A stretch of 33,153 nt of DNA from an uncultured Gemmatimonadaceae bacterium (GCA_964626245.1 CAZVDJ010000001.1:1-33153); one strand, 5' to 3'; shown: positions 12,521-28,364, counted from the stretch's first letter. Translations and numbers: made by a program. Notes: generated from the letters alone by a model not told the origin.

Positions 12521-15500
12521 TCAGTCGCCGGGCGCTCCCTCGGGCACCGCTGGCGAGGTGGCCACCGAGTGCTCGCGCGTCCGGTTCCCCCGCAAGCGGC
12601 GGATGAAGCCCGAGCGCCACTGCTCCATGATCTCGTACACGGTGGGGATCACGACCAGCGTGAGCACGGTGGAGGCGATCACGCCGCCAATCACCGCCCG
12701 CCCCAACGGGGCGCGGAAGTCGGCCCCCTCGCCGATGCCCAACGCCACGGGGATCATCCCGGCAATCAGGGCCATCGTCGTCATCATGATGGGACGCAAG
12801 CGGATGCGCCCAGCCCGGATGAGCGCATCGCGCACGCTCATCCCCGCGTCGCGGTGTGCCCACTTGGCAAAGTCGATGAGGAGGATGGCGTTCTTGGCCA
12901 CCAGCCCCATGAGCATCATCACCCCGATCAGGCTCATCACGTTGAGCGTGTCACCCGTGGCCAGGAGCGCCAGCACCACCCCAATCAGCGACAGCGGTAA
13001 CGAGATGAGGATCACCAGCGGCTCCAGGAACGAGCCGAACTGCACCACGAGGATGAGATACATCAGGAGCACCGCGATGCCGAGCGCGGTGATGATGGCG
13101 CCGAACATCTGGTTCTGGCTCTCCACCTGTCCCGCCTCGCTGATGCGATAGCCGGGCGGCATCGGGATGGTCGCGATGCGCCGCATGACGTCGGCGGCGA
13201 CGTTTCCCATGGACGCCCCCAGCACGTTGGCGCCGACGGTGACCACCCGGCGGCGCTGGTAGTGGTCGATGCGCGCCGGCCCGGTTCCCGGCGTGACCTC
13301 GGCCACCTGCGACAGCGGAATGAACGGGAGCGCCTCACCGGCCCCGCGCGGCGCACCGGTGAGCAGGATGGGGAGCTGCGCCACGTCGGCGGCACGGGCG
13401 CGCGCCTCCGGGGCCAGGCGCACGCGCACGTAGCGCGAAATTCCCGACGGGTCCACCCACGTCCCGGCCTCCACGCCAGCAAAGGCAAAGCGCAGCGACG
13501 CGGCCAGCTGCCCCACGCTCACGCCGAGCGACGACGCCAGTGCGCGATTCACGCGGATGCCAAGCTCCGGTGTCTGCCCCTTGGTGGAGAGGCCGACGTC
13601 CACCGCCCCCGGCACCGCGCGCACGGTGTCGGCCACCTGCTCGGCGAGCCGCGCCAGCACGCGCGCGTCGGGCCCCTGCACCTGGAGCTGCATCTGCTTC
13701 TGGTTGCCGGCCAGGCTTCCGGCATCAAAGGTGTAGACCACGGCTCCCGTGATGCGCGCGGTCTCTTCCCGGATGCGCTGCCCGAAGGCGAGCTGCGACA
13801 CGGTGCGCTCGCGCTTGGGCACCAGGCGCACGTACACCGTGGCCTGGTCCAGCGCGCCGGAGCCAGTGGAGCTGCCGACCGTGGTGTAGGTATAGGCCAC
13901 GACATCGCGGTGCGCGCGCACCATCTGCGCCACCTCCTCGGCCTTGAGCGTGGTGTACTCCAGCGACGAACCGGGCGGCGTCTCGATGGCGACGTTCAGC
14001 TCCCCGTTGTCCATCACCGGCTGGAACCCGAACCCCCCAAACGCCACCTGCAGCCAGAGCGCCAGCACCATCGACACGGCGGCAATCCCGATCATCGACC
14101 ATCGGTGGTCCAGCGCCCACGCGATCACCCGCTCGTAGCGCTCGGCCTGGCGGTCGAACCAGGCGTTGAAGCGGTCGAGCGCGCGGGCGATGGGGTTGCG
14201 CCGTTCGTGGGCCTCGAGCTGCGGGTCCGGCCAGTAGGCCGAGAGCATGGGGTCGAGCGAGAACGAGACGAAGAGCGAGACGAGGACCGCGCTGGCGATG
14301 GTGAGGGCGAACGGCTTGAAGAGCTGCCCCGCGATCCCCGGCATGAAGCCCACCGGGACGAAGACGGCGACGATGGAGAAGGTCGTCGCGGCCACGGCGA
14401 GCCCGATCTCGTCGGTCCCCTCGTGCGAGGCGCGCACGTGGTCTTTCCCCATCTCCACGTGCCGCACGATGTTCTCGCGCACCACGATCGCGTCGTCGAT
14501 CAGGATCCCGATCGCGAGCGAGAGCCCCATGAGCGACATCACGTTGAGCGTGAAGCCGAACAGGAGGAGCGGGGCAAAGGCGGTGAGCACCGAGACCGGG
14601 AGGGCGAGCCCCGTGATCACGGTGGAGCGCCACGAGTTGAGGAAGAGGAAGACGACGAGGACGGTGAGCACCGCGCCTTCGAACAGCGTGGACTGCACGT
14701 TGTTCACCGAACGGCGCACCCGGGCGCCGCCATCGCGCACGAACTCGATGGCCACCCCCGCGGGGAGCGTGGCCTGCAGCTCGGCGATGCGCGCGCGCAC
14801 GGCGTCGCCCACGCCGGTGGTGCTGTACTCGCGCGACTTGATGATGTCGAGGCCGATGGCGGGAACGCCGTTGAAGAGCGCCGCCGACGTCGCCTCGGCG
14901 GTGCCGGCTTCCACGTGGGCGAGCTGCCCCAGGCGGATGAGCTGCCCGCCACGCTGGGCGACGACGAGGTCGGCGAACTGCGCGGGGTTCTCGAGCCGCC
15001 CATCGAGCCGGATGACGCGATGCTCCATGGGGGCATTCACGCGCCCGACGGGAGCCGCGAGGTTCTGCGCGCGCACCGCGCTCACCACCTGGTCGATGCC
15101 GATGCCGGCGGTCGCCAGGTCGGTGGGGCGCACGTTGATGTTGAGCTGCGCGCTATCGCCGCCCACCAGGTTCACCTGTGCCACGCCAGGAATGGCGCGC
15201 AGCTCGCCGGCAATCTCCTGCTCCGCCAGCTGCGTGAGCTGCGGCGTGGGGAGCGTCCTGCTGGTGAGCGCCAGGGAGACAATGGGGAGCTGCGTGGGAT
15301 CGAAGCGGTTGAGGACCGGCTCCAGGATCTCCTGCGGCAGCTGCGGGCGCACCGCGGTCATGGCGTCGCGCACTTCCTGCAGCGCCTGGTCCACGTCCTT
15401 GGAAAAGACGAACTGGACGACGATCTGACCGAAGCCGTCGGTGGAGGAGGAGTTGAGCTTGTCGACGCCACTAATCGCCGAGAGCTTGTCCTCGATGCGC

Positions 15501-15694
15501 GTGACCACCTCGCGTTCCACGACATCCGGCGCCGCGCCGGGGTAGGCGACGGCGACGAAGACGATGGGCGGAGACAGTTCCGGGAACTCGTCGGTTCCCA
15601 GCCGGACCAGCGAGGCCAGGCCGAAGACGACGAGGGCGATCATCGAGACGACGGTGATGATCGGCCGACGGATGGAGAAGTCGGAGATGAACAC
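12521..15694 (-). CDS. AcrB/AcrD/AcrF-type (HAE1-like) RND efflux pump
   Basis: ORF track 1057 aa. Canonical opening MFISDFSIRRPIITVVSMIALVVFGLASL...DEFPELSPPIVFVAVAYPGAAPDVVEREV. 12-TM pseudo-duplicated architecture with two large periplasmic loops. Confidence 0.9.
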   Translation of the reverse strand: MFISDFSIRRPIITVVSMIALVVFGLASLVRLGTDEFPELSPPIVFVAVAYPGAAPDVVEREVVTRIEDKLSAISGVDKLNSSSTDGFGQIVVQFVFSKDVDQALQEVRDAMTAVRPQLPQEILEPVLNRFDPTQLPIVSLALTSRTLPTPQLTQLAEQEIAGELRAIPGVAQVNLVGGDSAQLNINVRPTDLATAGIGIDQVVSAVRAQNLAAPVGRVNAPMEHRVIRLDGRLENPAQFADLVVAQRGGQLIRLGQLAHVEAGTAEATSAALFNGVPAIGLDIIKSREYSTTGVGDAVRARIAELQATLPAGVAIEFVRDGGARVRRSVNNVQSTLFEGAVLTVLVVFLFLNSWRSTVITGLALPVSVLTAFAPLLLFGFTLNVMSLMGLSLAIGILIDDAIVVRENIVRHVEMGKDHVRASHEGTDEIGLAVAATTFSIVAVFVPVGFMPGIAGQLFKPFALTIASAVLVSLFVSFSLDPMLSAYWPDPQLEAHERRNPIARALDRFNAWFDRQAERYERVIAWALDHRWSMIGIAAVSMVLALWLQVAFGGFGFQPVMDNGELNVAIETPPGSSLEYTTLKAEEVAQMVRAHRDVVAYTYTTVGSSTGSGALDQATVYVRLVPKRERTVSQLAFGQRIREETARITGAVVYTFDAGSLAGNQKQMQLQVQGPDARVLARLAEQVADTVRAVPGAVDVGLSTKGQTPELGIRVNRALASSLGVSVGQLAASLRFAFAGVEAGTWVDPSGISRYVRVRLAPEARARAADVAQLPILLTGAPRGAGEALPFIPLSQVAEVTPGTGPARIDHYQRRRVVTVGANVLGASMGNVAADVMRRIATIPMPPGYRISEAGQVESQNQMFGAIITALGIAVLLMYLILVVQFGSFLEPLVILISLPLSLIGVVLALLATGDTLNVMSLIGVMMLMGLVAKNAILLIDFAKWAHRDAGMSVRDALIRAGRIRLRPIMMTTMALIAGMIPVALGIGEGADFRAPLGRAVIGGVIASTVLTLVVIPTVYEIMEQWRSGFIRRLRGNRTREHSVATSPAVPEGAPGD

Positions 15695-15831: not shown

Positions 15832-16482
15832 CTACGTGCCGGGACGCAGCAGGGCGAGCCCCGCCACGACGGTTGCGGCCAATGCCAGCATCACGCCGAG
15901 TGAGGCGTACAGGCGCCGCATCACGATGGCCTTTCCTTCCATGTCGGTCGAGATGATCAGGCATGCCTGCGTCAACTCGGCACTCAGCTGCTCGGCGCTC
16001 ACGGTGCGCCAGGCGCGGTGCAGCTCGCTCAGGCGCGCCAGCCCCTCGCCCGTGGGGATGAGGGAAAGGAGCACCTGGTCGCGCCGCTCCGGCACGAGTT
16101 CACTCTTGACCAGGCGCGCGATCTGGCGGGCCGAGAGTCCGGGGCGCAGCGAGCGGAGTGCGCCGGCAAGGACGGTGAACGCGACGAGCACGTACAGCGC
16201 CGCCATCGCGCGCAGCAGCAGTGCAAGCGATGGAGAGAGCGGAATGAGCAGGGGCTGGCGCGCGAGGAACAGGACGACACCGGTGTTGACGGCACCGAAG
16301 ATGATGAGCCCATAGCGCACGCGATGCTCGGCGTTCTCGAGCATCCGGCGTTCGAGGTCGAGCACGTCCCACTGGTGCCGGAGCCGCTCACGAAGCTCCA
16401 GCGGTTCATGGCTGTCGTGGGGCTTCTTGCGCCCGGACTTGTCCCCGAGCTTGCGGGCCCGCTTGGTGGTGAGGGGGCTCAC
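15832..16482 (-). CDS. Three-TM membrane protein of unknown function (Lys/Arg-rich N-terminal tail, TM hairpin, about 70-aa soluble insert, C-terminal TM)
   Basis: ORF track 216 aa. The GTG start overlaps the TetR stop by 4 nt (GTGA). Natural-looking composition. TM segments: YGLIIFGAVNTGVVLFLA, LLLRAMAALYVLVAFTVLAGAL, LGVMLALAATVVAGLALL. The layout recalls the DUF5706/Pycsar-effector TM family, from recollection only. Confidence 0.6.
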   Translation of the reverse strand: MSPLTTKRARKLGDKSGRKKPHDSHEPLELRERLRHQWDVLDLERRMLENAEHRVRYGLIIFGAVNTGVVLFLARQPLLIPLSPSLALLLRAMAALYVLVAFTVLAGALRSLRPGLSARQIARLVKSELVPERRDQVLLSLIPTGEGLARLSELHRAWRTVSAEQLSAELTQACLIISTDMEGKAIVMRRLYASLGVMLALAATVVAGLALLRPGT

Positions 16483-17207
16483 GGGACGCCTCCCGTCGAG
16501 GGGGGAGATGCACCGAGCGAGCGCAGGAGCGACTCGATGGTGGCGCTTGCCGCGGCACTCCGGTCGGGCCCGGTCAGGGCGCCGTAGACATCGGGATACG
16601 CGAACCAGATGGCGTGCGCGGCGAGCGTGGCGAGCACGGTGCGGGCGGCGGCTCGAACATCCGCGGTGTGCAGCTCGCCACGCTGCACCCCGCCGGTGAT
16701 GATCCGTTCCAGCTCGTGCAGGAGTCGCTCGAACGATTCGGCCGCGTGAAAGACGGCCAACTCGGGAAAGCGGGGAAGCTCGGCGATGGTGAGGCGCACC
16801 AGGGCGAGCATCTCGGGACGCTCCATGGCGCTCCAGTACCGGCGCGCAAAGCGGCCGACCTGGTGGGCGGCGTCGCGTAGGTCGGCCACCGTCGCGACAT
16901 CGGCACCATCCGCACCGTCGGCGGCGGGGGTGGAATCTGAGGGATCGGCCGCGGTCACCGCCGCGAGCATGGCATCCGGACCGGCAACGCTCTGGATCAG
17001 GGTCCAGCGGACCATGTCACGGAACAGCTCGTGCTTGTCTGAGAAATGGCGGCGCACCAGGTGCAGCGAGACGCCGGCCCGGCGCGCCACGCTGCGCATG
17101 GACGTCAGGGCAAACCCCATCTCGCTGAACTCGACGAGCGCCGCGCGGAGAATGGTTTCCGACGGGTCGTTGGACGGCACGGGAGAGGGGAGGGAGATCG
17201 AGGACAC
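16479..17207 (-). CDS. TetR/AcrR-family transcriptional regulator
   Basis: ORF 16479..17342 trimmed to GTG 17207 (VSSISLPSPVPSNDPSETILRAALVEFSEMGFALTSMRSVARRAGVSLHLVRRHFSDKHELF...), 242 aa. N-terminal HTH, then a helical C-terminal ligand domain. The exact start is uncertain. Confidence 0.8.
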   Translation of the reverse strand: MSSISLPSPVPSNDPSETILRAALVEFSEMGFALTSMRSVARRAGVSLHLVRRHFSDKHELFRDMVRWTLIQSVAGPDAMLAAVTAADPSDSTPAADGADGADVATVADLRDAAHQVGRFARRYWSAMERPEMLALVRLTIAELPRFPELAVFHAAESFERLLHELERIITGGVQRGELHTADVRAAARTVLATLAAHAIWFAYPDVYGALTGPDRSAAASATIESLLRSLGASPPSTGGVP

Positions 17208-17338
17208 GTGGAGGAACCTGCCTGTCGAGTGATCGTGCGGGCGCCGCGGAGCCGGCGCGCCGAGATGAAGGGCAACGGACGCGCCACCCGCGGTGGGGCG
17301 CGGCGCGGGCGCCGAAGCGCCGAGTATGTCTCGATGCA

Positions 17339-17350: not shown

Positions 17351-17402
17351 GTGCGCGGTCCTTCCCGCTGGCGGCCGGAGAGCCTGCTTGTGCCCTTACG
17401 AC

Positions 17403-17414
17403 ATTTCGCGAAAT
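17403..17414. promoter_or_regulatory. Perfect 12-bp palindrome ATTTCGCGAAAT (TCGCGA core), about 70 nt upstream of the first EBP gene
   Basis: Read directly. It lies in the most AT-rich stretch of the 277-bp intergenic region. It shares the TCGCGA(AAT) core with the blocks upstream of the two sigma-54 promoters. Confidence 0.35.
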
Positions 17415-17484
17415 TGGGAGATCTCACGCCCTCGCAGTTCCAACCCATGGGCGCCGCGTCGCGCGCCAGGCACCGACCCCTCCG

Positions 17485-19062
17485 GTGAATCCGCACCTCG
17501 ACGTCTTGCGACGGGTGACCCGCGACATGGCGGCGATCCCGCGGCTCAACGTGCTGCTGGAGTCGATCGTGACGGCGCTGCACGAGCACACCGGCACGTC
17601 GGTGGCGCGCATCTGGCTGTACCGCACCGACGCCGAGTGCGAGGTGTGCCGCGCGAACCCGGAGGTGCGAGGGGCGGTGACGGACCAACGGGCCCTGCAC
17701 CTGGCGGCCTCGATCGCGCCTCCGGGCGGTCCGACGCGCATCCCCCATCGGGTCGAGCTGAGTGAATCCTCGATCCTGACGCGCGTGGCGCGCGATCGCG
17801 CGGCGCAGTTCACCAACGACATGTCGACGGTGGTGCGCGGCGATGACAACGAGATCCAACGGCGCAATCTCGCCACGCTCGGCATCGTGGCGATGGGTGG
17901 GCAACCGCTCGAGTTCCGAGGCGAACTGCTCGGGGTGATGGGGATGCTGTACGCCAGGCCGATCCAGCCCCTCGAGATCGACCTGCTGCGCATCTTTGCG
18001 GACCAGGCGGCCGCGGCGATCAAGAACGCGTACCTGTTCGAGGAGGTGGAGCAGATCCGGCAGCGGCTGGCCGACGAGAACGCCTATCTGCGCGACGAGG
18101 CGCACGGGCAGCAGGAGTTCCGCGAGATCGTGGGGGGAAGCCCGGCGCTGCACACGGTGCTGCGCAAGATCAAGCAGGTGGCCGAGGTGGAGACCACGGT
18201 GCTCCTGACGGGAGAGACGGGAACCGGCAAGGAGCTCGTCGCGCGAGCGATCCACAGCCGCAGCCCGCGGCGCGAGCGCGCGATGATCAAGATGAACTGC
18301 GGCGCGATTCCGGCGGGGGTGGTGGAGTCGGAGCTCTTCGGCCACGAAAAGGGAGCGTTCACCGGCGCCATGCAGCGGCGCATCGGGCGCTTCGAGCTGG
18401 CGGATCGCAGCACGCTCTTCATGGACGAGGTCGGCGAGCTGCCGCCCGACACGCAGGTCAAGCTGCTGCGCATCCTGCAGGAGCAGGAGTTCGAGCGGGT
18501 GGGCGGGGTGCGACCGGTGAAGGTGGACGTGCGACTGGTGGCCGCCACCAATCGCGACCTCGAACGGGAGGTGACGGAGGGACGGATGCGGGCCGACCTG
18601 TTCTACCGCCTGAACGTCTTTCCCATCCACATCCCCCCACTGCGCGACCGGCCGAGCGACATCCCGCTCCTGGTGCAGCACTTCCTGCGGCACTTCCAGC
18701 GCAAGCTGGGAAAGCCGCTGCGGGAGTTGTCCAGGCGCGGGATGCAGCAGCTGCAGGCATACTCCTGGCCCGGCAACATCCGTGAGCTGCAAAACGTGAT
18801 CGAGCGCGCGTGCGTCCTGTCGCGGGGGCCGGTGGTGGACATCGGCGACGCGCTGGTGGTGAGCGACCGGGAGGCGCCCATCGCGGTGTCGCACGAGCCG
18901 CTGGTCACGCTCGAGGAGCACGAGCGCCGGCATATCCGGCGGGCGCTGGCGCTGGTGAACGGGAAGATCCACGGCCCCGGCGGGGCCGCCGAGCTGCTGG
19001 GCGTGAACGCCAGCACGCTACGGTCGCGGATGGAGCGACTCGGCGTGACGCGGGACGGCTGA
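17485..19062 (+). CDS. Sigma-54-dependent transcriptional activator (EBP), GAF / AAA+ / Fis-type HTH (paralog 1)
   Basis: ORF 17293..19062. Walker A LLTGETGTGKE, sigma-54 contact loop ESELFGHEKGAFTGA, Walker B LFMDEVGEL, R-finger region ATNRDL...FRADLFYRLNVF, C-terminal HTH AAELLGVNASTLRSRMERLGV. I place the start at GTG 17485 because third-position GC is low between 17326 and about 17455 and high after it. ATG 17326 is the alternative start. Confidence 0.85.
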   Translation: MNPHLDVLRRVTRDMAAIPRLNVLLESIVTALHEHTGTSVARIWLYRTDAECEVCRANPEVRGAVTDQRALHLAASIAPPGGPTRIPHRVELSESSILTRVARDRAAQFTNDMSTVVRGDDNEIQRRNLATLGIVAMGGQPLEFRGELLGVMGMLYARPIQPLEIDLLRIFADQAAAAIKNAYLFEEVEQIRQRLADENAYLRDEAHGQQEFREIVGGSPALHTVLRKIKQVAEVETTVLLTGETGTGKELVARAIHSRSPRRERAMIKMNCGAIPAGVVESELFGHEKGAFTGAMQRRIGRFELADRSTLFMDEVGELPPDTQVKLLRILQEQEFERVGGVRPVKVDVRLVAATNRDLEREVTEGRMRADLFYRLNVFPIHIPPLRDRPSDIPLLVQHFLRHFQRKLGKPLRELSRRGMQQLQAYSWPGNIRELQNVIERACVLSRGPVVDIGDALVVSDREAPIAVSHEPLVTLEEHERRHIRRALALVNGKIHGPGGAAELLGVNASTLRSRMERLGVTRDG

Positions 19063-19065
19063 TCG

Positions 19066-20715
19066 ATGACCTCCCCCGTCGATCCCCACGACGTGATGCC
19101 GCTTCCCGCGGCGCGCCTGGAGGTGCAGGTGGAGCTCCTGCGGCGCGTCACGCGCCACATGACGACTGCCGAGGACTTCGCGACGGTGCTGCAGTCGATT
19201 GCCGACGCCCTGGTGGCACAGGCCGGGGCGGTCGTGGCCCACATCTACCTGTACCTCGACGACGACGAGTGCCCGGTGTGCCGCACGCGGGCCCGGGAGG
19301 GACCGGCGGCCGGCGGCGCGCGGGGCGTCACGGGGCGCGACCTCCATCTCGTGACGATGAGCGGGGCACATTTTGCGCCTGACGGATCACGCCATCTCGT
19401 CCCTCATGCGCTGGACACACCGGCCGCGCGCATGATCCACTCCCCTGTTCCCGTGAGCAGGGACGACTTCGTCGACGACCCCGAGTGGCGCGCGGGCGAT
19501 CCCCGCTTCGCCGAGATCATGCGGCGCCTCGAAGTCCGCGGCACGATCTGCTATCCGCTGGTGCACCGGGGGGAACGACTGGGTGCACTCGGCTACCTCT
19601 CGCGCAGCCCCATCGACCCGGTCGTCTTCGAGTTGCTGGGGATCTTCGCCGACCAGGCGGCCATGGTCATTCGCAGCGCGCAGCTCTTTCGCGAAGTGGC
19701 GACGCACCGCGAGCGGCTGCAGTCGGAGAACGCATACCTGGAGGATGAGATCCGGAGCGACGCCAACTTCACGCACATCGTGGGGACGAGCACCGCGCTG
19801 CAGGGGGTCCTGCGCAAGGTGCGGCAGGTGGCCCCGGTGGAGACGACGGTACTGCTCACCGGCGAGACGGGGACGGGGAAGGAACTGATTGCGCGCGCCA
19901 TTCACGACGCGAGCCCGCGCAAGGATCGCCCGCTGATCAAGATCAACTGCGGCGCAATTCCGCAGGGAGTGGTGGAGAGCGAGCTCTTCGGCCATGAACG
20001 CGGGGCGTTCACTGGCGCGATGCAACAGCGCATTGGGCGATTCGAACTGGCGCACCAGGGCACGCTCTTCATGGACGAGGTGGGCGAACTTCCGCTCGAG
20101 ACGCAGGTCAAGCTGTTGCGCGTCCTGCAGGAGCGGGAATTCGAGCGGGTGGGGGGCACCAAGCCCATCGCCGTCGACGTACGGCTGATCGCGGCCACCA
20201 ACCGCGACCTGGAAGCCGAAGTGGCCGCCGGACGCTTTCGTGCGGACCTGTTCTATAGACTGAACGTCTTTCGCATCCGGATTCCCCCGTTGCGCGAGCG
20301 TCCCGACGACATCCCGCCGCTGGTGCAGCACCTCCTGGCGCAGCTGCAGCGCAAGCTGGCCAAGCCGCTCAAGGGGGTAAGCGAGGAGACGATGGCGCAG
20401 CTTCGGCGGTATCCCTGGCCCGGGAACATCCGCGAGCTGCAGAACGTGCTGGAACGCGCCGCGGTCCTCGCCACCGGGCCGATCGTGGCGTTGCACGATC
20501 CGCTGCGCCCAACCGCGATGGCGGGAAGTGCGGCATCGGGCGAGGTGACGATCTCCACGCTCGAGGACGGCGAGCGCGAACACATCCGCCGTGCGCTGAA
20601 GGAGAGCGGCGGCAAGGTGCACGGCCCGGGCGGGGCCGCCGAGATGCTGGGCATCAACCCCAGCACGCTGCGCTCGCGCATGCAGAAGCTCGCGATCGAC
20701 GCTCGAGGGAGTTAG
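19066..20715 (+). CDS. Sigma-54-dependent transcriptional activator (EBP), GAF / AAA+ / Fis-type HTH (paralog 2)
   Basis: ORF track 549 aa. LLTGETGTGKE, ESELFGHERGAFTGA, LFMDEVGEL, HTH AAEMLGINPSTLRSRMQKLAI. The ATG lies 3 nt after the paralog-1 stop. The AAA+ core is roughly three-quarters identical to paralog 1 by eye. Confidence 0.9.
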   Translation: MTSPVDPHDVMPLPAARLEVQVELLRRVTRHMTTAEDFATVLQSIADALVAQAGAVVAHIYLYLDDDECPVCRTRAREGPAAGGARGVTGRDLHLVTMSGAHFAPDGSRHLVPHALDTPAARMIHSPVPVSRDDFVDDPEWRAGDPRFAEIMRRLEVRGTICYPLVHRGERLGALGYLSRSPIDPVVFELLGIFADQAAMVIRSAQLFREVATHRERLQSENAYLEDEIRSDANFTHIVGTSTALQGVLRKVRQVAPVETTVLLTGETGTGKELIARAIHDASPRKDRPLIKINCGAIPQGVVESELFGHERGAFTGAMQQRIGRFELAHQGTLFMDEVGELPLETQVKLLRVLQEREFERVGGTKPIAVDVRLIAATNRDLEAEVAAGRFRADLFYRLNVFRIRIPPLRERPDDIPPLVQHLLAQLQRKLAKPLKGVSEETMAQLRRYPWPGNIRELQNVLERAAVLATGPIVALHDPLRPTAMAGSAASGEVTISTLEDGEREHIRRALKESGGKVHGPGGAAEMLGINPSTLRSRMQKLAIDARGS

Positions 20716-20765: not shown

Positions 20766-20803
20766 GGCAACACTCGCGACATCTCGCGACGGTCGTGGAA
20801 TCC
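20766..20803 (+). promoter_or_regulatory. Candidate upstream activator sequence (UAS) for the first sigma-54 promoter
   Basis: ggcaacacTCGCGAcatcTCGCGAcggtcgtggaatcc. Two TCGCGA hexamers lie 10 bp apart (20774-20779, 20784-20789). The block starts 142 bp upstream of TGGCA at 20908. It aligns at roughly 80% identity by eye with 26411-26446, which lies 139 bp upstream of the second sigma-54 promoter. Confidence 0.45.
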
Positions 20804-20907
20804 CGCGAAGCCGACGGGTCGCACCAGGCGCCGTCGTGACACGGGCCGACCACGCATCTACAGCCGCCGCCGTGACTTGCAGCGCACCCCGGTGCCTGAC
20901 CGGCGGG

Positions 20908-20923
20908 TGGCAATCCGGTTGCA
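20908..20923 (+). promoter_or_regulatory. Sigma-54 (-24/-12) promoter TGGCAA-TCCGG-TTGCA
   Basis: Read directly. GG and GC are separated by exactly 10 nt. It is intergenic, on the same strand as the adaptor gene, with its 3' end 85 nt upstream of the adaptor ATG (21009), directly downstream of two EBP genes. Confidence 0.65.
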
Positions 20924-21008: not shown

Positions 21009-22025
21009 ATGACAAAGACCCATCGCATTCTCATTGCGGCCACCACGCTCACCCTCGTCGGTGCCTTCGTGGCCCATCGCACGCTCGCCGCGGCCGATGG
21101 TGCCGACGTGATCACTGCCTCCGGTACGGTCGAGGCCACACAAGCAGAGCTCGGCTTCCAGCTCGCCGGGCGGCTGGAGCTCCTGACGGTCCGCGAAGGC
21201 GACGCCGTGACGGCGGGGACCGAACTTGCGCTGCTCGAGCGCGACGAGCTGCTGGCGCAGAAGGCCGCGGCCGAGGCGCAGCGGGCGGGCGCCGAGGCGG
21301 TGCTGCGGGAGCTGATCGCCGGCAGTCGCCGCGAGGAGATCGCGCAAGCCCGCGCCGCTCTCTCCGTGGCCACCGAGCGACGTGACGCGGCGCGACGCGA
21401 CGTGGAGCGGCTGCGGCCACTGGCCGACCAGTCGCTGGTGAGTCGCCAGGCCTTCGATCGCCAGGGCACGGCGCTCAGCGTCGCCGATGGCGAGGTGGCA
21501 CAGGCCAACGAACAGTTGCAGCTCCTGCAAAACGGCCCGCGCGCCGAGCGCATCGCGGCGCAGCGCGCGGCCACGGCGCAGGCCGCGGCGACGATCGACC
21601 GCATCGACGCCATGCTCGACCAGACGCGCCTCGAGGCGCCGATGAACGGGGTGGTCACGGTGCGGCATCGCGAGCCCGGTGAGACGCTGTCCCCGGGCAT
21701 GCCCGTGCTCACCATTCGCGACCTGGGCGACCGCTGGGTGCGCCTCTACGTCCCCGGCGACCAGGTGGGCCGGCTGCAGCTTGGGCAGCGCGCGACGATC
21801 ACTGCCGACGCCAATCCCGAGCTCATGTACACGGGGGAGGTGTCGTACATCGCCAGCGAGGCCGAGTTCACGCCACGCAACGTGCAGACGACGAAGGACC
21901 GCGTGAAGCTCGTGTACGAGGTGCGGGTCCGCATCACCAACGACGCTGCGATCGACCTCAAGCCCGGGCTCCCGGCCGACGTGCGCTTCACGGTCGCCCC
22001 CTCGCAGGGACGAGGTGCCACATGA
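21009..22025 (+). CDS. HlyD-family periplasmic adaptor (YbhG-like) of an ABC-2 efflux system
   Basis: ORF 20877..22025 trimmed to ATG 21009 (MTKTHRILIAATTLTLVGAFVAH...), 338 aa. N-terminal TM anchor, long coiled coil, C-terminal SYIASEAEFTPRNVQTTKDRVKLVYEVRVRI...LKPGLPADVRF typical of YbhG-type adaptors. Confidence 0.85.
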   Translation: MTKTHRILIAATTLTLVGAFVAHRTLAAADGADVITASGTVEATQAELGFQLAGRLELLTVREGDAVTAGTELALLERDELLAQKAAAEAQRAGAEAVLRELIAGSRREEIAQARAALSVATERRDAARRDVERLRPLADQSLVSRQAFDRQGTALSVADGEVAQANEQLQLLQNGPRAERIAAQRAATAQAAATIDRIDAMLDQTRLEAPMNGVVTVRHREPGETLSPGMPVLTIRDLGDRWVRLYVPGDQVGRLQLGQRATITADANPELMYTGEVSYIASEAEFTPRNVQTTKDRVKLVYEVRVRITNDAAIDLKPGLPADVRFTVAPSQGRGAT

Positions 22026-23017
22026 CCCACCCGCCTCCCGCCTCCCCGCCAGGCGCCGCGATCCGCGTGCAGGCGCTGACCAAGCGCTACGGTGCCCTCA
22101 CGGCGCTGGACACCCTGTCGCTGGAGGTGCGCAGCGGCGAGCTGTTCGGGATCGTTGGTCCCGACGGCAGTGGCAAGACCACCGTGCTGCGCATCCTGGC
22201 CGGCGTGCTGCGCCCGGAGGGTGGCGATGCCGTCGTCGCCGGCACCTCGGTCACGTCGGACCCGGAGGGGGTCAAGCACCGCATTGCCTACATGGCACAG
22301 CGCTTCGGGCTGTACGGCGACCTGTCGGTGCGCGAGAACATCGACTTCTACGCCGACCTGTACGGTGTGCCACGCGCCGTGCGCCCGGCGCGACTGGAGC
22401 GCCTGTTCGCCTTCTCCAACCTCGGCGCGTTCCAGCAACGGCTGGCGGGAAACCTGTCGGGCGGCATGAAGCAGAAGCTCTCGCTCTGTTGCGCCCTCAT
22501 CCATGAGCCCGAGGTGTTGCTGCTGGACGAGCCGACGTTCGGGGTGGATCCCATCTCGCGGCGCGAGCTCTGGCTCATCGTGCACGAGATGGTGGCCCGG
22601 GGGACGACGGCCGTGGTGTCGACGGCCTACCTGGACGAAGCGGAACGGTGCGACCGCGTGGCGTTGCTGAACCACGGCCGGCTGGCGGCGCTGGATACGC
22701 CGGCGGCGCTGCAGGCCAGGCTGGCGGGGCGATCGATCGCCATCGCATGCAACGCCCCGCGTCGCGCGGCTGCCCAGCTGCAAGGCATGGCTGGCGTGCG
22801 GAGCGCGGCGCTATACGGGCGCTCGCTGCACGTGACGCTCGAACAGCCACAGCTGGGCGAACAGGTCCTGGCGCATCTCCGTTCGGCGGGGATCGAGATC
22901 CAGTCGTCCCGGGCCTTCGACCCCTCGCTGGAAGATGTCTTCATCGAACTGTCGGCTACCGACGGCAGCACGCGCGGCAGTCACGACGCCACCCAGGGTT
23001 CTCTCCATGCCGCCTGA
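22022..23017 (+). CDS. ABC transporter ATP-binding protein (canonical motifs)
   Basis: ORF track 331 aa. Walker A GPDGSGKTT, signature LSGGMKQKL, Walker B LLLDEPTFGVD, H-loop STAYLDE. The ATG overlaps the adaptor stop (ATGA). Confidence 0.9.
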   Translation: MTHPPPASPPGAAIRVQALTKRYGALTALDTLSLEVRSGELFGIVGPDGSGKTTVLRILAGVLRPEGGDAVVAGTSVTSDPEGVKHRIAYMAQRFGLYGDLSVRENIDFYADLYGVPRAVRPARLERLFAFSNLGAFQQRLAGNLSGGMKQKLSLCCALIHEPEVLLLDEPTFGVDPISRRELWLIVHEMVARGTTAVVSTAYLDEAERCDRVALLNHGRLAALDTPAALQARLAGRSIAIACNAPRRAAAQLQGMAGVRSAALYGRSLHVTLEQPQLGEQVLAHLRSAGIEIQSSRAFDPSLEDVFIELSATDGSTRGSHDATQGSLHAA

Positions 23018-23960
23018 TCTCATGCCCGATGCCGTCACGGTGGACGGCCTGACCCGGCGCTACGGCGCCTTCACCGCGGTGGACGCCGTGAGCTTCTCCG
23101 TGCGTCCGGGCGAGGTGTTCGGATTCCTTGGCCCCAACGGGGCGGGGAAGACCACCACCATCAAGATGCTGACCGGGCTCGTGCGCCCCAGCGCCGGCCG
23201 CGGCAGCGTGGCCGGCTACGACGTGGTCACCAGCGGCGGGCGCATCAAGCACGTGATCGGATACATGTCGCAGCTGTTCTCGCTGTACCACGACCTCACG
23301 GTCGACGAGAACATCGACTTCGCGGCGGGGATGCACGGCGTGACGGGCACTCGCCTCGAGCGCCGCCGCGAGTGGGTGCTGTCGATGGCGCGCCTGCACG
23401 AGCATCGTGATCGCCCAACCGCCGCGCTGCCGCTGGGATGGAAGCAACGCCTGGCGCTGGGGTGTGCGGTGTTGCACGAACCCCGGGTGCTCTTTCTCGA
23501 CGAGCCGACCTCGGGGGTGGACCCGCTGGCCCGGCGCGCCTTCTGGGACGTGATCCACGAGCTGGCGCAGGGAGGGACCACGGTATTCGTGAGCACGCAC
23601 TACATGGAAGAAGCGGAGTACTGCGACCGGTTGGCGCTGATGAACCGTGGGCGCCTGATCGCGCTGGGCACCCCCGACACGTTGCGCGACGGCATGCCGG
23701 AGCCGGTGCTGCGGGTGGAGGTGAGCGACGCGCCACGTGCGGTGGCGGCGCTGGCCGGCGCCGACGGCGTGCTCGATGCCTCGCTCTTCGGCCGGGTGGT
23801 GCGGGTGATCGTGGCCGAAGCGTCGGTGGCCCGGGAGGCGGTGCGCCGCACCCTCGAAGGGGCGGGGCTTTCCTGTCTCGCCATTCAGCAGGTCGAACCC
23901 TCACTCGAGGACGTCTTCGTCTCGCACGTGCGGAATGCGGGGGGAGCGGTCATCTCATGA
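23007..23960 (+). CDS. ABC transporter ATP-binding protein (degenerate signature motif)
   Basis: ORF 22935..23960 trimmed to ATG 23007 (MPPDLMPDAVTVDGLTRRYG...); ATG 23022 is the alternative start. Walker A GPNGAGKTT, Walker B LFLDEPTSGVD, H-loop STHYMEE. The signature position reads LPLGWKQRL instead of LSGGQ. Confidence 0.9.
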   Translation: MPPDLMPDAVTVDGLTRRYGAFTAVDAVSFSVRPGEVFGFLGPNGAGKTTTIKMLTGLVRPSAGRGSVAGYDVVTSGGRIKHVIGYMSQLFSLYHDLTVDENIDFAAGMHGVTGTRLERRREWVLSMARLHEHRDRPTAALPLGWKQRLALGCAVLHEPRVLFLDEPTSGVDPLARRAFWDVIHELAQGGTTVFVSTHYMEEAEYCDRLALMNRGRLIALGTPDTLRDGMPEPVLRVEVSDAPRAVAALAGADGVLDASLFGRVVRVIVAEASVAREAVRRTLEGAGLSCLAIQQVEPSLEDVFVSHVRNAGGAVIS

Positions 23961-25108
23961 ATGCCACGAGTCACGGTGCGCTCCCGCGCACGTTCAGCGC
24001 GTCTCGGTTGTGGGCGATGGCGCGCAAGGAAGCGCTGCAGCTGCGGCGGGACGCGCGCAGCCTCGCGCTCGCCTTCGCCCTGCCGCTCCTGATGCTCATC
24101 CTGTTTGGCTACGCGATCACCACCGACGTCACCAACATCCAGGCGGCGGTGGTGGACCGCGACCACACGGCGGAGAGCCGCCGGTTCGTCGAGGCGTTCG
24201 CCCGGTCGGGCTACTTCACCTTCGTCGAGTCGCCGGCCAGCGAGGGGGCGCTCGACGGACTGATCGACAAGGGAAGGGTGCGGGTGGGGCTGGTGATCCC
24301 CGAGCGCTTCGCCGCCGAGTTGGCGGCGGGGCGGACGGCGCCGGTGGAACTGCGCCTGGATGGGAGCGACGCCAAGACGGCGACGGTGGCACGCGGCTAC
24401 GCGGATGCCATCGCCCGCACCTTCTCGCAGCAGACGGTTCTCCAGCTGCAACGTGCCACCCCTCCCCTCACGGCCCAGTCGCGCGTGTGGTACAACGAAA
24501 CGCTCGACTCCGCGTCGATGATCGTGCCGGGCCTGATTGCCGTGATCATGTCGATCATCGCCGCGATGCTCACCTCGCTCACGGTGGCACGCGAGTGGGA
24601 GCGGGGGACGATGGAACAGCTCGCGGCCACGCCGGTGAGCCGCAGCGAAGTGGTGCTCGGCAAGCTCGTCCCCTACCTGGCGATCGGCATCCTCGACGTG
24701 GCGGTCGCCCTGGTGGTGGCAGTGAGCATCTTCGACGTGCCGTTCCGGGGGAGCCTGCCCTTGTTCGCACTGTCGTCGGCGCTGTTCCTGGTTGGGGTGC
24801 TGGGGCTCGGGATCTTCATCTCGTCGGCGTTCAAGTCCCAGCTCCTGGCCACGCAGGCGGCGCTCTTCGCCACGTACATGCCCGCGCTGCTCTTCTCCGG
24901 CTTCATGTACACCATCAGCAACATGCCCGTGGCGCTGCAGTGGGTGTCGCGGGTGGTGCCGGCGCGCTACTTCGTCTCCATCTCGCGCGGGCTCTTCCTC
25001 AAGGGGGTCGGCACCGAGGTGCTGTGGCCGGCCCTGCTGGGGCTCACCCTTTACGCCGGGGCGATGCTGACCCTCGGCATCACGAAGTTCAAGAAGGAGC
25101 TGGCCTGA
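23957..25108 (+). CDS. ABC-2 type transporter permease (YbhS/YbhR-like)
   Basis: ORF 23438..25108 trimmed to ATG 23957 (MNATSHGALPRTFSASRLWAMARKEALQLRRDARSLALAFALPLLMLILFGYA...), 383 aa. N-terminal TM, large extracytoplasmic loop, C-terminal 5-TM ABC-2 core. The ATG overlaps the preceding stop (ATGA). Confidence 0.85.
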   Translation: MNATSHGALPRTFSASRLWAMARKEALQLRRDARSLALAFALPLLMLILFGYAITTDVTNIQAAVVDRDHTAESRRFVEAFARSGYFTFVESPASEGALDGLIDKGRVRVGLVIPERFAAELAAGRTAPVELRLDGSDAKTATVARGYADAIARTFSQQTVLQLQRATPPLTAQSRVWYNETLDSASMIVPGLIAVIMSIIAAMLTSLTVAREWERGTMEQLAATPVSRSEVVLGKLVPYLAIGILDVAVALVVAVSIFDVPFRGSLPLFALSSALFLVGVLGLGIFISSAFKSQLLATQAALFATYMPALLFSGFMYTISNMPVALQWVSRVVPARYFVSISRGLFLKGVGTEVLWPALLGLTLYAGAMLTLGITKFKKELA

Positions 25109-26244
25109 TGCACGCGACCGCGCATGCACCGCCGGACCGCTTCTCCTGGTCCCGGCTCTGGCACATGGTGCGAAAGGAACTGAAGCAGATGTGGCGCGAT
25201 CCCAAGGCGCGCCCCCTGCTCTTCATCTCCCCGATCTTCCAGATGTTCCTGATGGGCTATGCCGCAACGACGGACGTGAACGACATCACGACGATCGTGG
25301 CCGACCACGACCGCACCATGGAGTCGCGGGCGCTGGTGGCGGCCTACGAAGCAACGGGCTACTTCACGGTGGTGCGGCACACGGACCGCGCGGGAGACGT
25401 GACGGCCGCGCTGAACACGGGCGAGGCGATCGTGGGACTCACCATCCCGCCAGGCTTCTCGCGAGACCTGGCGTCCGGTCGCGCCATCGTACAGGCGGTG
25501 ATCGACGGTGCCGACGCCAGCCAGGCGACGGTGGCGCAGTCGTACGCCAACCAGATCGCCACCGAGTTCGGGGCGAAGCTGACCGGGCGACGCCTCGGCG
25601 GGGGCGTTGAGCTCCGCTCGCGCGCCTGGTTCAACCCGAGCTTCGAGAGCCGGTTCTTCAATGTGCCGGCCATCATGGGCGTTCAGATCTTCATGATCGG
25701 ACTGCTGCTCACCGCACTTGGTGTGGTGCGCGAGCGGGAAATCGGCACGCTGGACCAGCTGATGGTGAGCCCGATCCTCCCCGCCGAGTTCATGCTGGGC
25801 AAGACCATCCCGGTGCTGGGACTGGGGCTGCTCCACCTGGTGATCTACACGGTGATGACGGTTTGGCAGTTCGGGGTCCCGTTGACGGGGTCCTTTGCCT
25901 CGCTGGCCCTGGCGACATTCCTCTACACCCTGGCCGGGTTGGCCATCGGGCTCCTGATCTCGACCGTTTCGCGCACGCAGCAGGAGGCGTTCATGCTGCT
26001 GATCCTCTTCTTCCTCCCCGCCGTCATGCTCTCGGGCTTCGTGTCGCCGGTGGAGAGCATGCCCCTGGCGTTCCAGTGGCTCACCGTGCTCAACCCGGTG
26101 CGCTACTTCCTCGAGATCGTGCGCGGCGTCTTCCTCAAGGGGATCGGCCTGGGTGTGCTCTGGCCGCAGTACCTGATCCTGACGGTCATGGCAGTCGTCA
26201 CCCTTCAGTTTGCCACGCACCGGCTCAAGCGCCTGGTGGCCTGA
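25108..26244 (+). CDS. ABC-2 type transporter permease (YbhS/YbhR-like), paralog of the preceding gene
   Basis: ORF 23935..26244 trimmed to ATG 25108 (MHATAHAPPDRFSWSRLWHMVRKELKQMWRDPKARPLLFISPIFQMFLMGYA...), 378 aa. Same architecture as the preceding gene. 1-nt overlap with the preceding stop (TGATG). Confidence 0.85.
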   Translation: MHATAHAPPDRFSWSRLWHMVRKELKQMWRDPKARPLLFISPIFQMFLMGYAATTDVNDITTIVADHDRTMESRALVAAYEATGYFTVVRHTDRAGDVTAALNTGEAIVGLTIPPGFSRDLASGRAIVQAVIDGADASQATVAQSYANQIATEFGAKLTGRRLGGGVELRSRAWFNPSFESRFFNVPAIMGVQIFMIGLLLTALGVVREREIGTLDQLMVSPILPAEFMLGKTIPVLGLGLLHLVIYTVMTVWQFGVPLTGSFASLALATFLYTLAGLAIGLLISTVSRTQQEAFMLLILFFLPAVMLSGFVSPVESMPLAFQWLTVLNPVRYFLEIVRGVFLKGIGLGVLWPQYLILTVMAVVTLQFATHRLKRLVA

Positions 26245-26249
26245 CCCTA

Positions 26250-26290
26250 CCGCACCACCGCACCACCGCACCACCGCACCACCGCACGAC
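26250..26290. repeat. Octamer tandem repeat (ccgcacca x4 plus one imperfect copy), starting 6 nt after the permease stop
   Basis: Read directly and indexed by codon arithmetic from an overlapping ORF. Confidence 0.9.
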
Positions 26291-26294
26291 ACGC

Positions 26295-26328
26295 GAGGCC
26301 CGCACCCGAACCAACGGCTGCGGGCCTC
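26295..26328 (+). terminator. Strong GC-rich hairpin; candidate intrinsic terminator or RNA-processing structure after the ABC operon
   Basis: gaggcccgca (26295-26304) pairs perfectly with tgcgggcctc (26319-26328). Three more pairs are possible inside the loop (ccg/cgg). There is no T-tract after it, so terminator function is uncertain. Confidence 0.45.
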
Positions 26329-26353
26329 TGCCGTTAGGGGGAGCATCCCCGAA

Positions 26354-26446
26354 GGCCGTCGCGAGCGTCGTGGCGAGAGGCCGTCGCGACCGGCCGTCGC
26401 GAGCGGCCGCGGCGACATCGCGCGATCTCGCGACGTCGCGAAATCC
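26354..26446 (+). promoter_or_regulatory. TCGCGA-rich repeat cluster / candidate UAS for the second sigma-54 promoter
   Basis: Five TCGCGA hexamers in 83 bp (26359, 26384, 26397, 26428, 26436). GGCCGTCGCGA occurs three times. There is a 20-bp near-perfect palindrome ATCTCGCGAC/GTCGCGAAAT at 26425-26444 (9 of 10 arm positions pair). Block 26411-26446 aligns with 20766-20803. Confidence 0.45.
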
Positions 26447-26549
26447 AGCGACGCGCAGAGGGGACCCGCAAAGGACGCACGACGCGCCCGCGTGGTGCAA
26501 GTCGCACGACGACAGCGACTTGGCGTGACGTGCCACGCGGAGGCGGGAC

Positions 26550-26565
26550 TGGCACCCGCGTTGCC
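26550..26565 (+). promoter_or_regulatory. Sigma-54 (-24/-12) promoter TGGCAC-CCGCG-TTGCC
   Basis: Read directly and confirmed by codon indexing. GG-N10-GC spacing is exact and the TGGCAC matches consensus fully. Its 3' end is 69 nt upstream of the OMP ATG (26635), on the same strand. Confidence 0.65.
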
Positions 26566-26634: not shown

Positions 26635-28035
26635 ATGCCCTCCGCCACCTTCGCGCCCACATCCCGCCCTGTCTGCCCGGTGTCGGCACACCAGCACCTG
26701 GTCCGCGCATCGGTCGCGGCCGTCATGCTCGTCCTGGCACGGCCGGCCACGGCACACGCGCAGCAGCCGCTCTCACTCACGTTAGGCGGCGCGGCCCGCA
26801 TCGCAGCGGACCGCGGCACGCAGACCGAGGCCGCCCGCGCACGATCGGCACAGGCCGATGCCCGCGCCGTGCAACGTCGCTCGGCGCTGCTGCCGTCACT
26901 CTCGACGTCGACGCAGTACAGCGCCCGGACCTTCAACACGGCCTCGCTCGGGCTCAACATGCCCACGCCCAGCGGCGAGCCGGCGTTCGACACACGCGGC
27001 GAGGTGCTGGGCCCCGTGCGCTCCACCGACCTGCGCACGCAGCTCTCGCAGCGCGTGCTGGACCTGCCTGCCCTCTATGGCTGGCGAGCCGCGGGCGCGG
27101 ACGCGGAAGCGGCGCGCTTCGGCGTGAACCAGGCCTCGGAGGAGGCGGCCGAGCGCGGTGCGCTGGCCTACCTGGCGGTGGTGCGCGCCGAGGCACGCAT
27201 CGCCGCGCGCAGCGCGGATTCGGCGCTGGCGGCAGAGCTGGTCGACATCGCGCGGCAGCAGGTGCAGGCAGGCGTCGGCATCGCCCTCGACGTCACGAGG
27301 GCCCAGGCGCACCTGGCCGACGCCAGGGCGCGGCTCATTGCGACCCGAAGCGATCGCGATCGTGGCCTCCTCCAGCTCAAGCATGAGCTGGCGTTGGCAG
27401 CCGAGGCGCCGATCACCATCGCGGATTCGCTCGCCGACCCCGGCTCCGAAGAGTTTGACGAAGATCCGTCGGGCCTGCTGCAGGCGGCCCTGGCACGCCG
27501 CGCCGACTTCCTCGAGGCGCAGGCGCTGAGCGTGAGCGCGTCGACCCAGATGCGCGCGGCCCGTGCCGAACGCTACCCGGTGATCTCGCTCTTCGCCGAC
27601 CAGGGGCGCAACGGCAAGGACGTCGATCGCCTGCTCGACACGTACTCGTACGGCATCCAGGTGTCCGCGCCCCTCTTCGACGGCTTTCGCGCCTCGTCGC
27701 GCGCCGCGGAGCAGAAGGGGCGTCAACGCGAGGCGGAAGCCCGCATGGCCGACACGCGCCGGCAGGTGGAGACCGACGTGCGCTCCGCGCTGCTCACGCT
27801 TCGGGCCACGCGCGAGGAAGTGGCGGCGGCGCAGGCCCGCCTGACGCTCGCCGAGCAGGAAGTCGCGCAAGCGCGCGAGCTCTTCAAGGCAGGGATCAGT
27901 GGCAACAGTGACGTGATCAATGCCTCCATCGGGCTCAATGGCGCTCGCGACCTCGTGATCGACGCGCTCGCCCGCTACCACCAGTCGCGCGTGGCGCTGG
28001 CCAACGCGCAAGGCACCACCACGCAGATCCGCTGA
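26635..28035 (+). CDS. TolC-family outer membrane efflux protein
   Basis: ORF 26530..28035 trimmed to ATG 26635, 466 aa. Signal-like VAAVMLVLARPATAHA/QQ. Duplicated OEP pattern (LSLTLGGAARIAADRGTQTEAARARSAQADA...; LLQAALARRADFLEAQALSVSASTQMRAARAERYPVISLFADQG...). C-terminal ARYHQSRVALANAQG. Confidence 0.85.
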   Translation: MPSATFAPTSRPVCPVSAHQHLVRASVAAVMLVLARPATAHAQQPLSLTLGGAARIAADRGTQTEAARARSAQADARAVQRRSALLPSLSTSTQYSARTFNTASLGLNMPTPSGEPAFDTRGEVLGPVRSTDLRTQLSQRVLDLPALYGWRAAGADAEAARFGVNQASEEAAERGALAYLAVVRAEARIAARSADSALAAELVDIARQQVQAGVGIALDVTRAQAHLADARARLIATRSDRDRGLLQLKHELALAAEAPITIADSLADPGSEEFDEDPSGLLQAALARRADFLEAQALSVSASTQMRAARAERYPVISLFADQGRNGKDVDRLLDTYSYGIQVSAPLFDGFRASSRAAEQKGRQREAEARMADTRRQVETDVRSALLTLRATREEVAAAQARLTLAEQEVAQARELFKAGISGNSDVINASIGLNGARDLVIDALARYHQSRVALANAQGTTTQIR

Positions 28036-28064: not shown

Positions 28065-28364
28065 ATGTCGTTCATGCGCTTCCTGTTCCCGCGCCCGCTC
28101 AGTGATGACACGGCCAGGGCCCGTGCACTCCAGCAGTGGCTTGCCACCGGCGTGGTCCCGGTGGCGCACATGGTCGCCGACCTGGGTGCCATGGGCGAGG
28201 CCACTGGAGAGTTCGAACGACCACGCCCGGCGGCCATTCGTGCCGGCTCCACGTTCCCCGCCCGTTCGGCGCACCCGCTGCCCAGCAGCCTCCACGACAC
28301 GTCCTGCCATCGCCCATGTCGCCTGTCACCCCAAACGTGCGCGTGCGTCCATCATCACCGGTGA
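28065..28364 (+). CDS. Small hypothetical protein (99 aa) with a Cys/His-rich C-terminal tail
   Basis: GAGGA at 28053-28057 lies 7 nt before ATG 28065. Third-position GC is roughly 80% in this frame by my count. The stop overlaps the next ATG by 1 nt (TGATG), the same junction style seen elsewhere in the window. The tail reads SCHRPCRLSPQTCACVHHHR. I recognise no family. The last 50 nt are frame-ambiguous by codon bias. Confidence 0.45.
   Translation: MSFMRFLFPRPLSDDTARARALQQWLATGVVPVAHMVADLGAMGEATGEFERPRPAAIRAGSTFPARSAHPLPSSLHDTSCHRPCRLSPQTCACVHHHR

Follow-up and report, generated by a model that had tools for sequence, protein, structure and literature searches.

The enhancers of the enhancer-binding protein (EBP) NifA are found approximately 80-150 bp upstream of the -24/-12 promoter element, with a site for integration host factor (IHF) in between at several nif promoters, and the NifA box is TGT-N10-ACA. 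Among transporters, the E. coli cecR(ybiH)-ybhGFSR system is sigma-70 dependent and repressor-controlled. In the enterobacterial formate hydrogenlyase regulon, genes that depend on the EBP FhlA were predicted to have, ahead of their sigma-54 promoter, two palindromes whose half-sites flank an A/T-rich centre of 6 bp, and the FhlA box is the 14-bp sequence TGWC-RAWRAT-GWCA (PMC7658346). Tandem or paralogous EBPs act at sigma-54 promoters in Pseudomonas syringae, where HrpR/HrpS drive the extracytoplasmic function (ECF) sigma gene hrpL (PMC5263251), and in Aromatoleum anaerobium, where RedR1/RedR2 control three promoters (PMC10084136); paralogous EBPs, as in the NifA/VnfA/AnfA set, are known to interact (PMC9542535). 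Here we analyzed a stretch of 33,153 nucleotides from an uncultured Gemmatimonadaceae bacterium (GCA_964626245.1, CAZVDJ010000001.1:1-33153; 71% G+C), called the window below, in which paired palindromes lie upstream of sigma-54 promoters beside two EBP genes and a set of efflux genes. To our knowledge, experiments have revealed almost nothing about how transcription is controlled in Gemmatimonadota, and literature searches on this subject turned up a comparative-genomics survey only. We propose, with a probability of about 0.8, that EBP1 and EBP2, two GAF-AAA+-HTH (helix-turn-helix) proteins with genes at 17485-20715, use the palindrome blocks as their upstream activating sequences (enhancers).

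An earlier note on the window had described a similar block upstream of each of two sigma-54 promoters. Both block positions were confirmed, and they start, as had been claimed, 142 and 139 bp before the promoters when counted to the T of TGG at 20908 and 26550. Alignment by hand matched 31 of 38 columns (82%) with two 1-nt gaps, in agreement with the identity of about 80% estimated previously. The true unit, however, was found to be a 16-bp palindrome with the consensus TCGCGAnATnTCGCGA, TCGCG-N6-CGCGA, present in two tandem copies whose starts are 18-19 bp apart; the pair was recognized as the unit because the orthologous loci L001-L004 carry two such copies at the same place and with the same spacing. 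Upstream of the hlyD operon, the distal dyad TCGCGACATCTCGCGA (20774-20789) is a perfect TCGCG-N6-CGCGA of 23.9 bits located 134 nt before the T of TGG, and the proximal dyad TCGTGGAATCCCGCGA (20793-20808; one mismatch, 16.5 bits) starts 19 bp after the distal start. Upstream of the outer-membrane efflux protein (OEP) gene, the distal dyad TCGCGCGATCTCGCGA (26418-26433, 19.2 bits) and the proximal dyad TCGCGAAATCCAGCGA (26436-26451; one mismatch, 15.7 bits) are 18 bp apart. The distal dyads are thus 132-134 nt and the proximal dyads 114-115 nt from TGG, the value for the distal OEP dyad being 132 nt.

This unit changes some details of the first description. The TCGCGA hexamers were there, but not as pairs within one larger imperfect palindrome, since they are the half-sites of the first 16-bp palindrome. 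Copy 1 was rightly located at 20766-20803 and was ended too early, the second palindrome running 5 bp further to 20808, and copy 2, which had been ended at 26446, should extend to 26451, the end of its second site. The leading ggcaaca and ggcgaca of the two blocks showed no conservation in orthologues. Just upstream of copy 2, three direct repeats, GGCCGTCGCGA / AGGCCGTCGCGAGCG, were seen at 26353-26405 with starts at 26353, 26378 and 26391. Each holds one TCGCGA half-site, to which the weight matrix described below gives no full-site score, and none of these repeats was seen in the upstream sequences of L001 or L004.

The exact sigma-54 pattern TGGCA-N6-TTGC had only two matches in the window, both on the plus strand. 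The -24/-12 promoter of the hlyD-ABC (ATP-binding cassette) operon, TGGCAATCCGGTTGCA (20908-20923), is kept in orthologues, and that of the OEP gene, TGGCACCCGCGTTGCC (26550-26565), has orthologous promoters in L001, L004 and L210. Both of the promoters to which the block had been assigned therefore stood, but their number did not, as the window holds three such promoters. The third is a sigma-54-type promoter upstream of a TetR-family gene, TGGCGCGTCCGTTGC (17272-17286, minus strand), which has one mismatch to the search pattern with GG and GC intact, is divergent from EBP1 and has orthologous minus-strand promoters in L004, L214-L218 and L220. Its enhancer reads GCGTGAGATCTCCCAA-tt-TCGCGAAATGTCGTAA on the minus strand, with TGG at 17286(-) following 143 nt after the distal and 125 nt after the proximal dyad. 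The proximal dyad TCGCGAAATGTCGTAA (17396-17411, minus strand) is the highest-scoring site of the window (24.3 bits with the out-of-window matrix), and the distal dyad GCGTGAGATCTCCCAA (17414-17429, minus strand) is degenerate. In the latter a deviant half-site, TCCCAA instead of TCGCGA, is common to the third enhancers of the window, L004, L214 and L215, the last three of which carry xTGCGAGATCTCCCAA at this position. The third enhancer lies approximately 55 bp upstream of the probable EBP1 start and could therefore also autoregulate the EBP genes, in one direction or the other.

The weight matrix was made from 36 sites, all from genomes other than the window, and the central AT of the palindrome was present in 36 of the 36. 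When this matrix was applied to the window, the five best positions were 17396, 20774, 26418, 20793 and 26436 (15.7-24.3 bits), and the sixth scored 10.3 bits. Five sites were observed at 14 bits or more, compared to a mean of 0.3 in 200 dinucleotide shuffles. The hexamer TCGCGA by itself was not enriched, with 26 occurrences in the window compared to 25.9 expected, 7 of the 26 lying inside the two intergenic stretches. TCGCG-N6-CGCGA with at most one mismatch gave 27 matches in the window compared to 13.7 +/- 3.7 expected. A scan of all reference genomes for the exact paired dyad returned at least 120 stretches, nearly all of them chance matches in coding DNA of high-GC genomes. Among the matches listed, the L003 contig was the only one from Gemmatimonadota in which a sigma-54 promoter stood at the distance expected, two others had a weak TGG-N9-TGC at 116 and 121 nt, and the remaining Gemmatimonadota matches were inside genes. 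This exact scan is a caution about chance matches and is otherwise uninformative.

The closest relatives of the window were Gemmatimonadaceae metagenome-assembled genomes (MAGs), with HlyD identities of 66-76%. When 11 promoters of 8 genomes (the window and 7 MAGs) were aligned, conservation did not extend beyond the dyad pair, a middle element with TT and the -24/-12 element. The earlier note had staked its proposal on conservation of the block in orthologous intergenic regions, and conserved it was, while the flanking DNA was not. Of 24 promoters examined in Gemmatimonadales, 23 had as their two best matrix matches in the 200 bp upstream, or nearly so, a pair with starts 18-19 bp apart; the enhancer-promoter distances were 124-125, 132-138, 143 and 165 nt. 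The dyads were kept across genomes whose HlyD identity is just 58-76%. HlyD-ABC loci with both the pair and the promoter were the five closest only (the window and L001-L004). EBP genes were seen in the window, L001 and L004, and the L002 and L003 contigs stop too near hlyD to show any. As a control set, 79 further HlyD-ABC loci (919 kb) were taken from an HlyD profile search, with no EBP detected beside the transporter; in one of them, L162, an EBP fragment lies approximately 6.7 kb upstream on the other strand. The dyad pair was found in 0 of these 79 control loci, and no TTGC-type promoter was present in control loci of 59% identity or less.

The orthologous loci also differ in the number of activators, several having one EBP gene only. 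L001, the closest of them, has a single EBP of 348 aa (4712-5758) with AAA+ and HTH domains and no GAF domain, which is a naturally 'unregulated' form, and it keeps both enhancers. No TetR gene was present within 4.7 kb upstream or in the 13-kb L001 locus. In L004, frame shifts at 6001-8940 split the hlyD and ABC ATPase genes and are suspected to be sequencing errors rather than signs of pseudogenes.

EBP1 (17485-19062, plus strand) and EBP2 (19066-20715, plus strand) were each assigned by Pfam a GAF domain, an AAA+ sigma-54 activator domain and HTH_8. They are 55% identical, their genes are 3 bp apart, and they share the same recognition helix. EBP1 has a probable GTG start at 17485 in a frame open from 17293, and its homology to EBP2 and to the L004 EBP1 starts at residue 62-65 of the long open reading frame (ORF). 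GAFTGA, Walker A/B and the arginine finger are intact in both proteins. Neither between EBP1 and EBP2 nor among their orthologues does the recognition helix vary (G-A-A-x-x-L-G-x-N-x-STLRSRM). A CxxC motif in the GAF domain, (D/E/H/A/G)-E-C-x-x-C, was present in 10 of 10 Gemmatimonadales EBPs examined (window, L004, L210 and L213-L218), at residue ~124 of EBP1 (ORF opening at 17269) and residue ~70 of EBP2, and was absent from the Binatia-type relatives with the same HTH. The motif may serve to sense metals or redox state.

A search with the HTH domain returned 80 loci from many phyla, and the 64 non-Gemmatimonadota loci were scored with a matrix derived from the window and L001-L004 only. A site pair 17-19 bp apart was found in 20 of these 64 EBP loci sharing the helix, compared to 0 of the 79 controls (Fisher p = 1.5e-8). 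In a Binatia genome, for example, the pair reads TCGCGATATTTCGCGA-gga-TTGCGATATTTCGCGA. All 20 of the 20 pairs adjoin a TGGCAC-N5-xTGC promoter, at 98-101 nt in 16 loci, 112-114 nt in two and 132-133 nt in two. Same-helix EBPs with the pair approximately 100 nt upstream of a sigma-54 promoter were noted within L219, L223-L246, L248, L254, L271 and L276 (for example L228:3770-4200), and the EBPs belong to Binatia, Acidobacteriota, Verrucomicrobiota, Nitrospirota and 'deltaproteobacterial' MAGs. In the two annotated loci, L226 and L228, the genes predicted to be driven by the promoter run divergently from the EBP gene and encode a STAS protein, an ECF sigma factor and an anti-sigma factor with a zf-HC2 zinc finger, and no TetR gene was found in either by Pfam scan. 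Because the pairs in other phyla adjoin EBPs with the same helix, the site follows the recognition helix and not the target genes or a TetR protein.

These findings support the earlier proposal of an enhancer for a shared activator, to which symmetry, pairing, position, conservation, co-occurrence with EBPs and the shared helix all point. At all three promoters of the window, the sites lie on the same DNA within approximately 80-200 bp upstream of a -24 GG / -12 GC element, as is typical of upstream activating sequences, and each set consists of paired 16-bp dyads. EBP1 and EBP2 each have a domain for DNA binding and an intact motif for contact with sigma-54, and sites and regulators occur together, as judged from the five closest HlyD-ABC loci compared to 79 controls and from the 20 of 20 other-phylum pairs that have a promoter. 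A single dimer of the Fis-type C-terminal HTH, with the recognition helix (N)-x-STLRSRM-x-KLG, would occupy each palindrome, and it may come from either EBP or from a hetero-oligomer of the two. Two abutting dimers would nucleate the AAA+ hexamer once a signal, presumably sensed by the GAF domain, switches that domain on. The oligomer would then reach the sigma-54 holoenzyme at -24/-12, approximately 115-135 bp downstream, by DNA looping, and ATP hydrolysis would open the promoter. The distance classes observed (100, 113, 124, 132-138, 143 and 165) are approximately 10-11 bp apart, about one helical turn, which would fit a face-of-helix requirement for looping. The hlyD promoter would thereby express the tripartite ABC efflux transporter, the OEP promoter the TolC-like outer-membrane channel, and the minus-strand tetR promoter the TetR-family regulator and probably also the genes that follow it (a 216-aa membrane protein and a resistance-nodulation-division (RND) pump). 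The predicted result is co-ordinated expression of an ABC exporter with its adaptor, an outer-membrane channel and a TetR-family regulator.

The conserved middle element may aid the looping. The IHF consensus is WATCAR-N4-TTR, and a CAR-N4-TTR element, corresponding to the core of this consensus only, was found 36-39 nt before TGG in 10 of the 24 promoters, compared to 0.1 expected from shuffles. The copy upstream of the OEP gene, CAGCGACTTG (26513-26522, plus strand), is exact and lies 37 nt upstream of TGG, and the copy upstream of hlyD, CCGTGACTTG (20870-20879, plus strand), approximately 38 nt upstream of TGG, is degenerate and fails the strict pattern. All 11 aligned promoters share its TT at 20877-20878. 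Among the 24 promoters, CAR-N4-TTR was absent from those of the TetR genes. The middle element is a candidate IHF-type bending site only.

Several points weigh against the enhancer interpretation. The L218 hlyD promoter, which is orthologous, has no recognizable pair. Many of the Gemmatimonadales promoters are orthologous and hence are not independent observations. In other phyla no more than 20 of the 64 loci passed the threshold for a pair; the helix may not be sufficient, or the sites may lie beyond the flanks that were fetched. With starts 18-19 bp apart, the dimers are approximately 1.75 helical turns from each other, which is tighter than in the NtrC, DctD and XylR enhancers with their spacing of two or three turns. 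The scheme gives no role to the repeats at 26353-26405. No rpoN gene lies inside the 33-kb window. Finally, the whole case is one of comparative sequence analysis.

The neighboring TetR-family gene suggests another function for the dyads, as operators of a repressor that controls the efflux genes directly or blocks the enhancer. TetR proteins bind 15-17 bp palindromes that are often paired, and the dyads are palindromes of suitable length and come in pairs; a TetR-family gene adjoins the locus both in the window and in most Gemmatimonadales orthologues, and E. coli transporters of the ybhGFSR type are under TetR-family control. The dyads, however, are 113-137 bp upstream of the promoters and neither overlap nor adjoin them, L001 keeps both enhancers with no TetR gene in the vicinity given above, and the same pair stands beside EBPs in Binatia and other phyla, including L226 and L228 with their STAS-ECF neighbors. 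Moreover, the sites track the EBP recognition helix. Because of the position of the sites and their persistence without a nearby TetR gene, we disfavor this explanation and consider it very unlikely. An unlinked transcription factor or nucleoid protein could also occupy the dyads while the EBPs act from solution or from other sites, which we regard as unlikely. Some EBPs do act without specific DNA binding, for example the HTH-less ones, which make up approximately 4% of type Ic, and contact between EBP and dyad is here deduced from comparing sequences. Both EBPs nevertheless keep an HTH with an invariant recognition helix, and the association of helix and dyads extends across phyla despite unrelated target genes, so that an unlinked factor would need to be co-conserved with this EBP subfamily everywhere.

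Two further possibilities deny the dyads a role as protein-binding DNA. That the blocks resemble each other by shared ancestry, as a duplicated promoter cassette, or are chance CG-rich palindromes at 71% G+C, in either case with no function, agrees with the lack of TCGCGA enrichment across the window and with the chance occurrence of exact paired patterns in coding DNA of many high-GC genomes. It is nevertheless extremely improbable, as alignment of the two upstream regions is confined to the dyads, the middle element and -24/-12, and the sites are kept at 58-76% HlyD identity and in other phyla, and neither the controls (0 of 79) nor the shuffles (0.3 sites compared to five observed) reproduced them. 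There is next to no likelihood that the palindromes act in RNA, as terminator or attenuator hairpins after EBP2 and the permease gene. Copy 1 is 59 nt past the EBP2 stop and each palindrome can form a 6-bp stem, yet the three enhancer regions folded no better than their shuffles (z = -0.6, -1.2 and -0.5), on account of which an RNA role was dropped. In addition, there was no T-run and no Rfam match, the third promoter and the other-phylum pairs lie in divergent spacers that are upstream of both genes and not transcribed, and the permease gene already has a hairpin of its own behind it, at 26295-26328.

Returning to the enhancer interpretation, the findings in other phyla allow a broader proposal, which is tentative and whose odds we place a little short of even. 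An EBP subfamily with the helix N-x-STLRSRM-x-KLG would read one 16-bp palindrome pair (TCGCGAnATnTCGCGA twice, 17-19 bp apart) in at least five phyla, and re-wiring would have given it different outputs. In Gemmatimonadales the output may be a three-promoter efflux regulon (ABC transporter, TolC-like channel and a sigma-54-activated TetR-family regulator), and in Binatia, Acidobacteriota and others it may be a STAS - ECF sigma - anti-sigma cassette driven from a fixed distance of approximately 100 bp. The sensor in Gemmatimonadales may be a GAF domain with CxxC, sometimes duplicated into a possibly hetero-oligomeric pair. If true, this would be a portable, predictable enhancer code for a widespread, uncharacterized EBP family.

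The predicted transcription unit of the first promoter, the hlyD-ABC operon (21009-26244, plus strand), was assigned with Pfam and NCBIfam and consists of hlyD, for a membrane-fusion protein or HlyD-type adaptor (21009-22025), two ABC ATPase genes (22022-23960) and a fused ABC-2 permease gene (23935-26244), all on the plus strand. An 8-nt tandem repeat, ACCGCACC, of approximately five copies (26249-26290) begins 5 nt past the permease stop codon and is followed by the hairpin at 26295-26328, which has a 14-bp stem (GAGGCCCGCACCCG / CGGCTGCGGGCCTC) and is terminator-like but without a T-run. The TolC-like OEP gene (26635-28035, plus strand) matched Pfam OEP, and its NCBIfam TolC subfamily match was below cut-off. 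After it come a 392-aa ORF with no family match (28136-29314) and a polyphosphate kinase (PPK) ORF of 1066 aa (29311-32511); in the latter the PPK domains begin only at residue 386, so that its start has probably been placed wrongly, or else it carries a long extension lacking annotation.

On the minus strand, the TetR-family gene (16479-17207; Pfam TetR_N / TetR_C_7, probable start GTG 17207) overlaps with its end the start of the 216-aa membrane-protein ORF (15832-16482). The RND pump gene (12521-15694) is next, downstream of the TetR gene, and may be part of the third sigma-54 transcription unit. The surroundings are rich in export systems (738-5990 and 8586-15694) and include, also on the minus strand, HlyD plus OEP genes (738-3155), a histidine kinase and an OmpR-type regulator (3260-5990) and a MacB/FtsX-type permease (9321-12293). 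A scan of the whole window matched no Rfam family.

The locus offers a complete testable circuit, with sensor-activators, a DNA site, three sigma-54 promoters and an efflux output, and the motif is usable at once for regulon prediction in genomes with this EBP subfamily. The sigma-54 wiring of ABC/TolC efflux and of a TetR regulator is unusual for drug- or toxin-export genes, and the constancy of helix and site across phyla makes a clean case for conservation of EBP specificity and of enhancer-promoter phasing. The circuit is solid, testable and transferable and involves no new principle. Searches of the open-access literature yielded no description of the motif or the EBP subfamily, nor any account of an efflux locus of this kind under sigma-54 control. 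Since known EBP enhancers share this anatomy and no description of the motif was found, we regard the element as one of a well-known kind with a new sequence motif.

When the two activators were compared with known EBPs, the best NCBIfam match of both was FhlA, with NifA and NorR next, and none of the three came near its equivalog cut-off. The likeness to FhlA, a GAF-containing EBP, includes the C-terminal HTH. In contrast, EBP1 and EBP2 scored 418 and 410, respectively, compared to a cut-off of 830, the sites here are the 16-bp TCGCGAnATnTCGCGA and do not match the FhlA box, and FhlA has two GAF domains and senses formate, whereas the targets here are efflux genes. NifA has the same single GAF-AAA+-HTH architecture and a 16-bp dyad enhancer, but its half-sites are TGT instead of TCGCGA, the sites here beginning with TCG and ending with CGA; the scores were 396 and 389 compared to a cut-off of 529, and the window holds no nif genes. 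Identity of the EBPs with FhlA or with NifA was rejected, in each case on score cut-off and site sequence.

The arrangement of EBP1 and EBP2 as adjacent paralogues resembles that of HrpR/HrpS and RedR1/RedR2, and, like HrpR/HrpS, the Binatia-type relatives seem to have an ECF sigma gene as their target. HrpR/HrpS, a co-dependent pair that forms an obligate hetero-hexamer, differ in that they have no N-terminal sensory domain, whereas EBP1 and EBP2 both have a GAF domain with the CxxC motif, and in that orthologous loci with a single EBP exist here. The gene content was similar to that of E. coli cecR(ybiH)-ybhGFSR, with a TetR-family gene, an HlyD-type adaptor, tandem ABC ATPase domains and ABC-2 permeases, and NCBIfam PRK03598 matched the HlyD protein with a score of 204, below its cut-off of 393. 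In contrast to the E. coli system, two EBP genes are here inserted between the TetR gene and hlyD, and the transporter, TolC-like and TetR genes are each preceded by a sigma-54 promoter with its putative enhancer.

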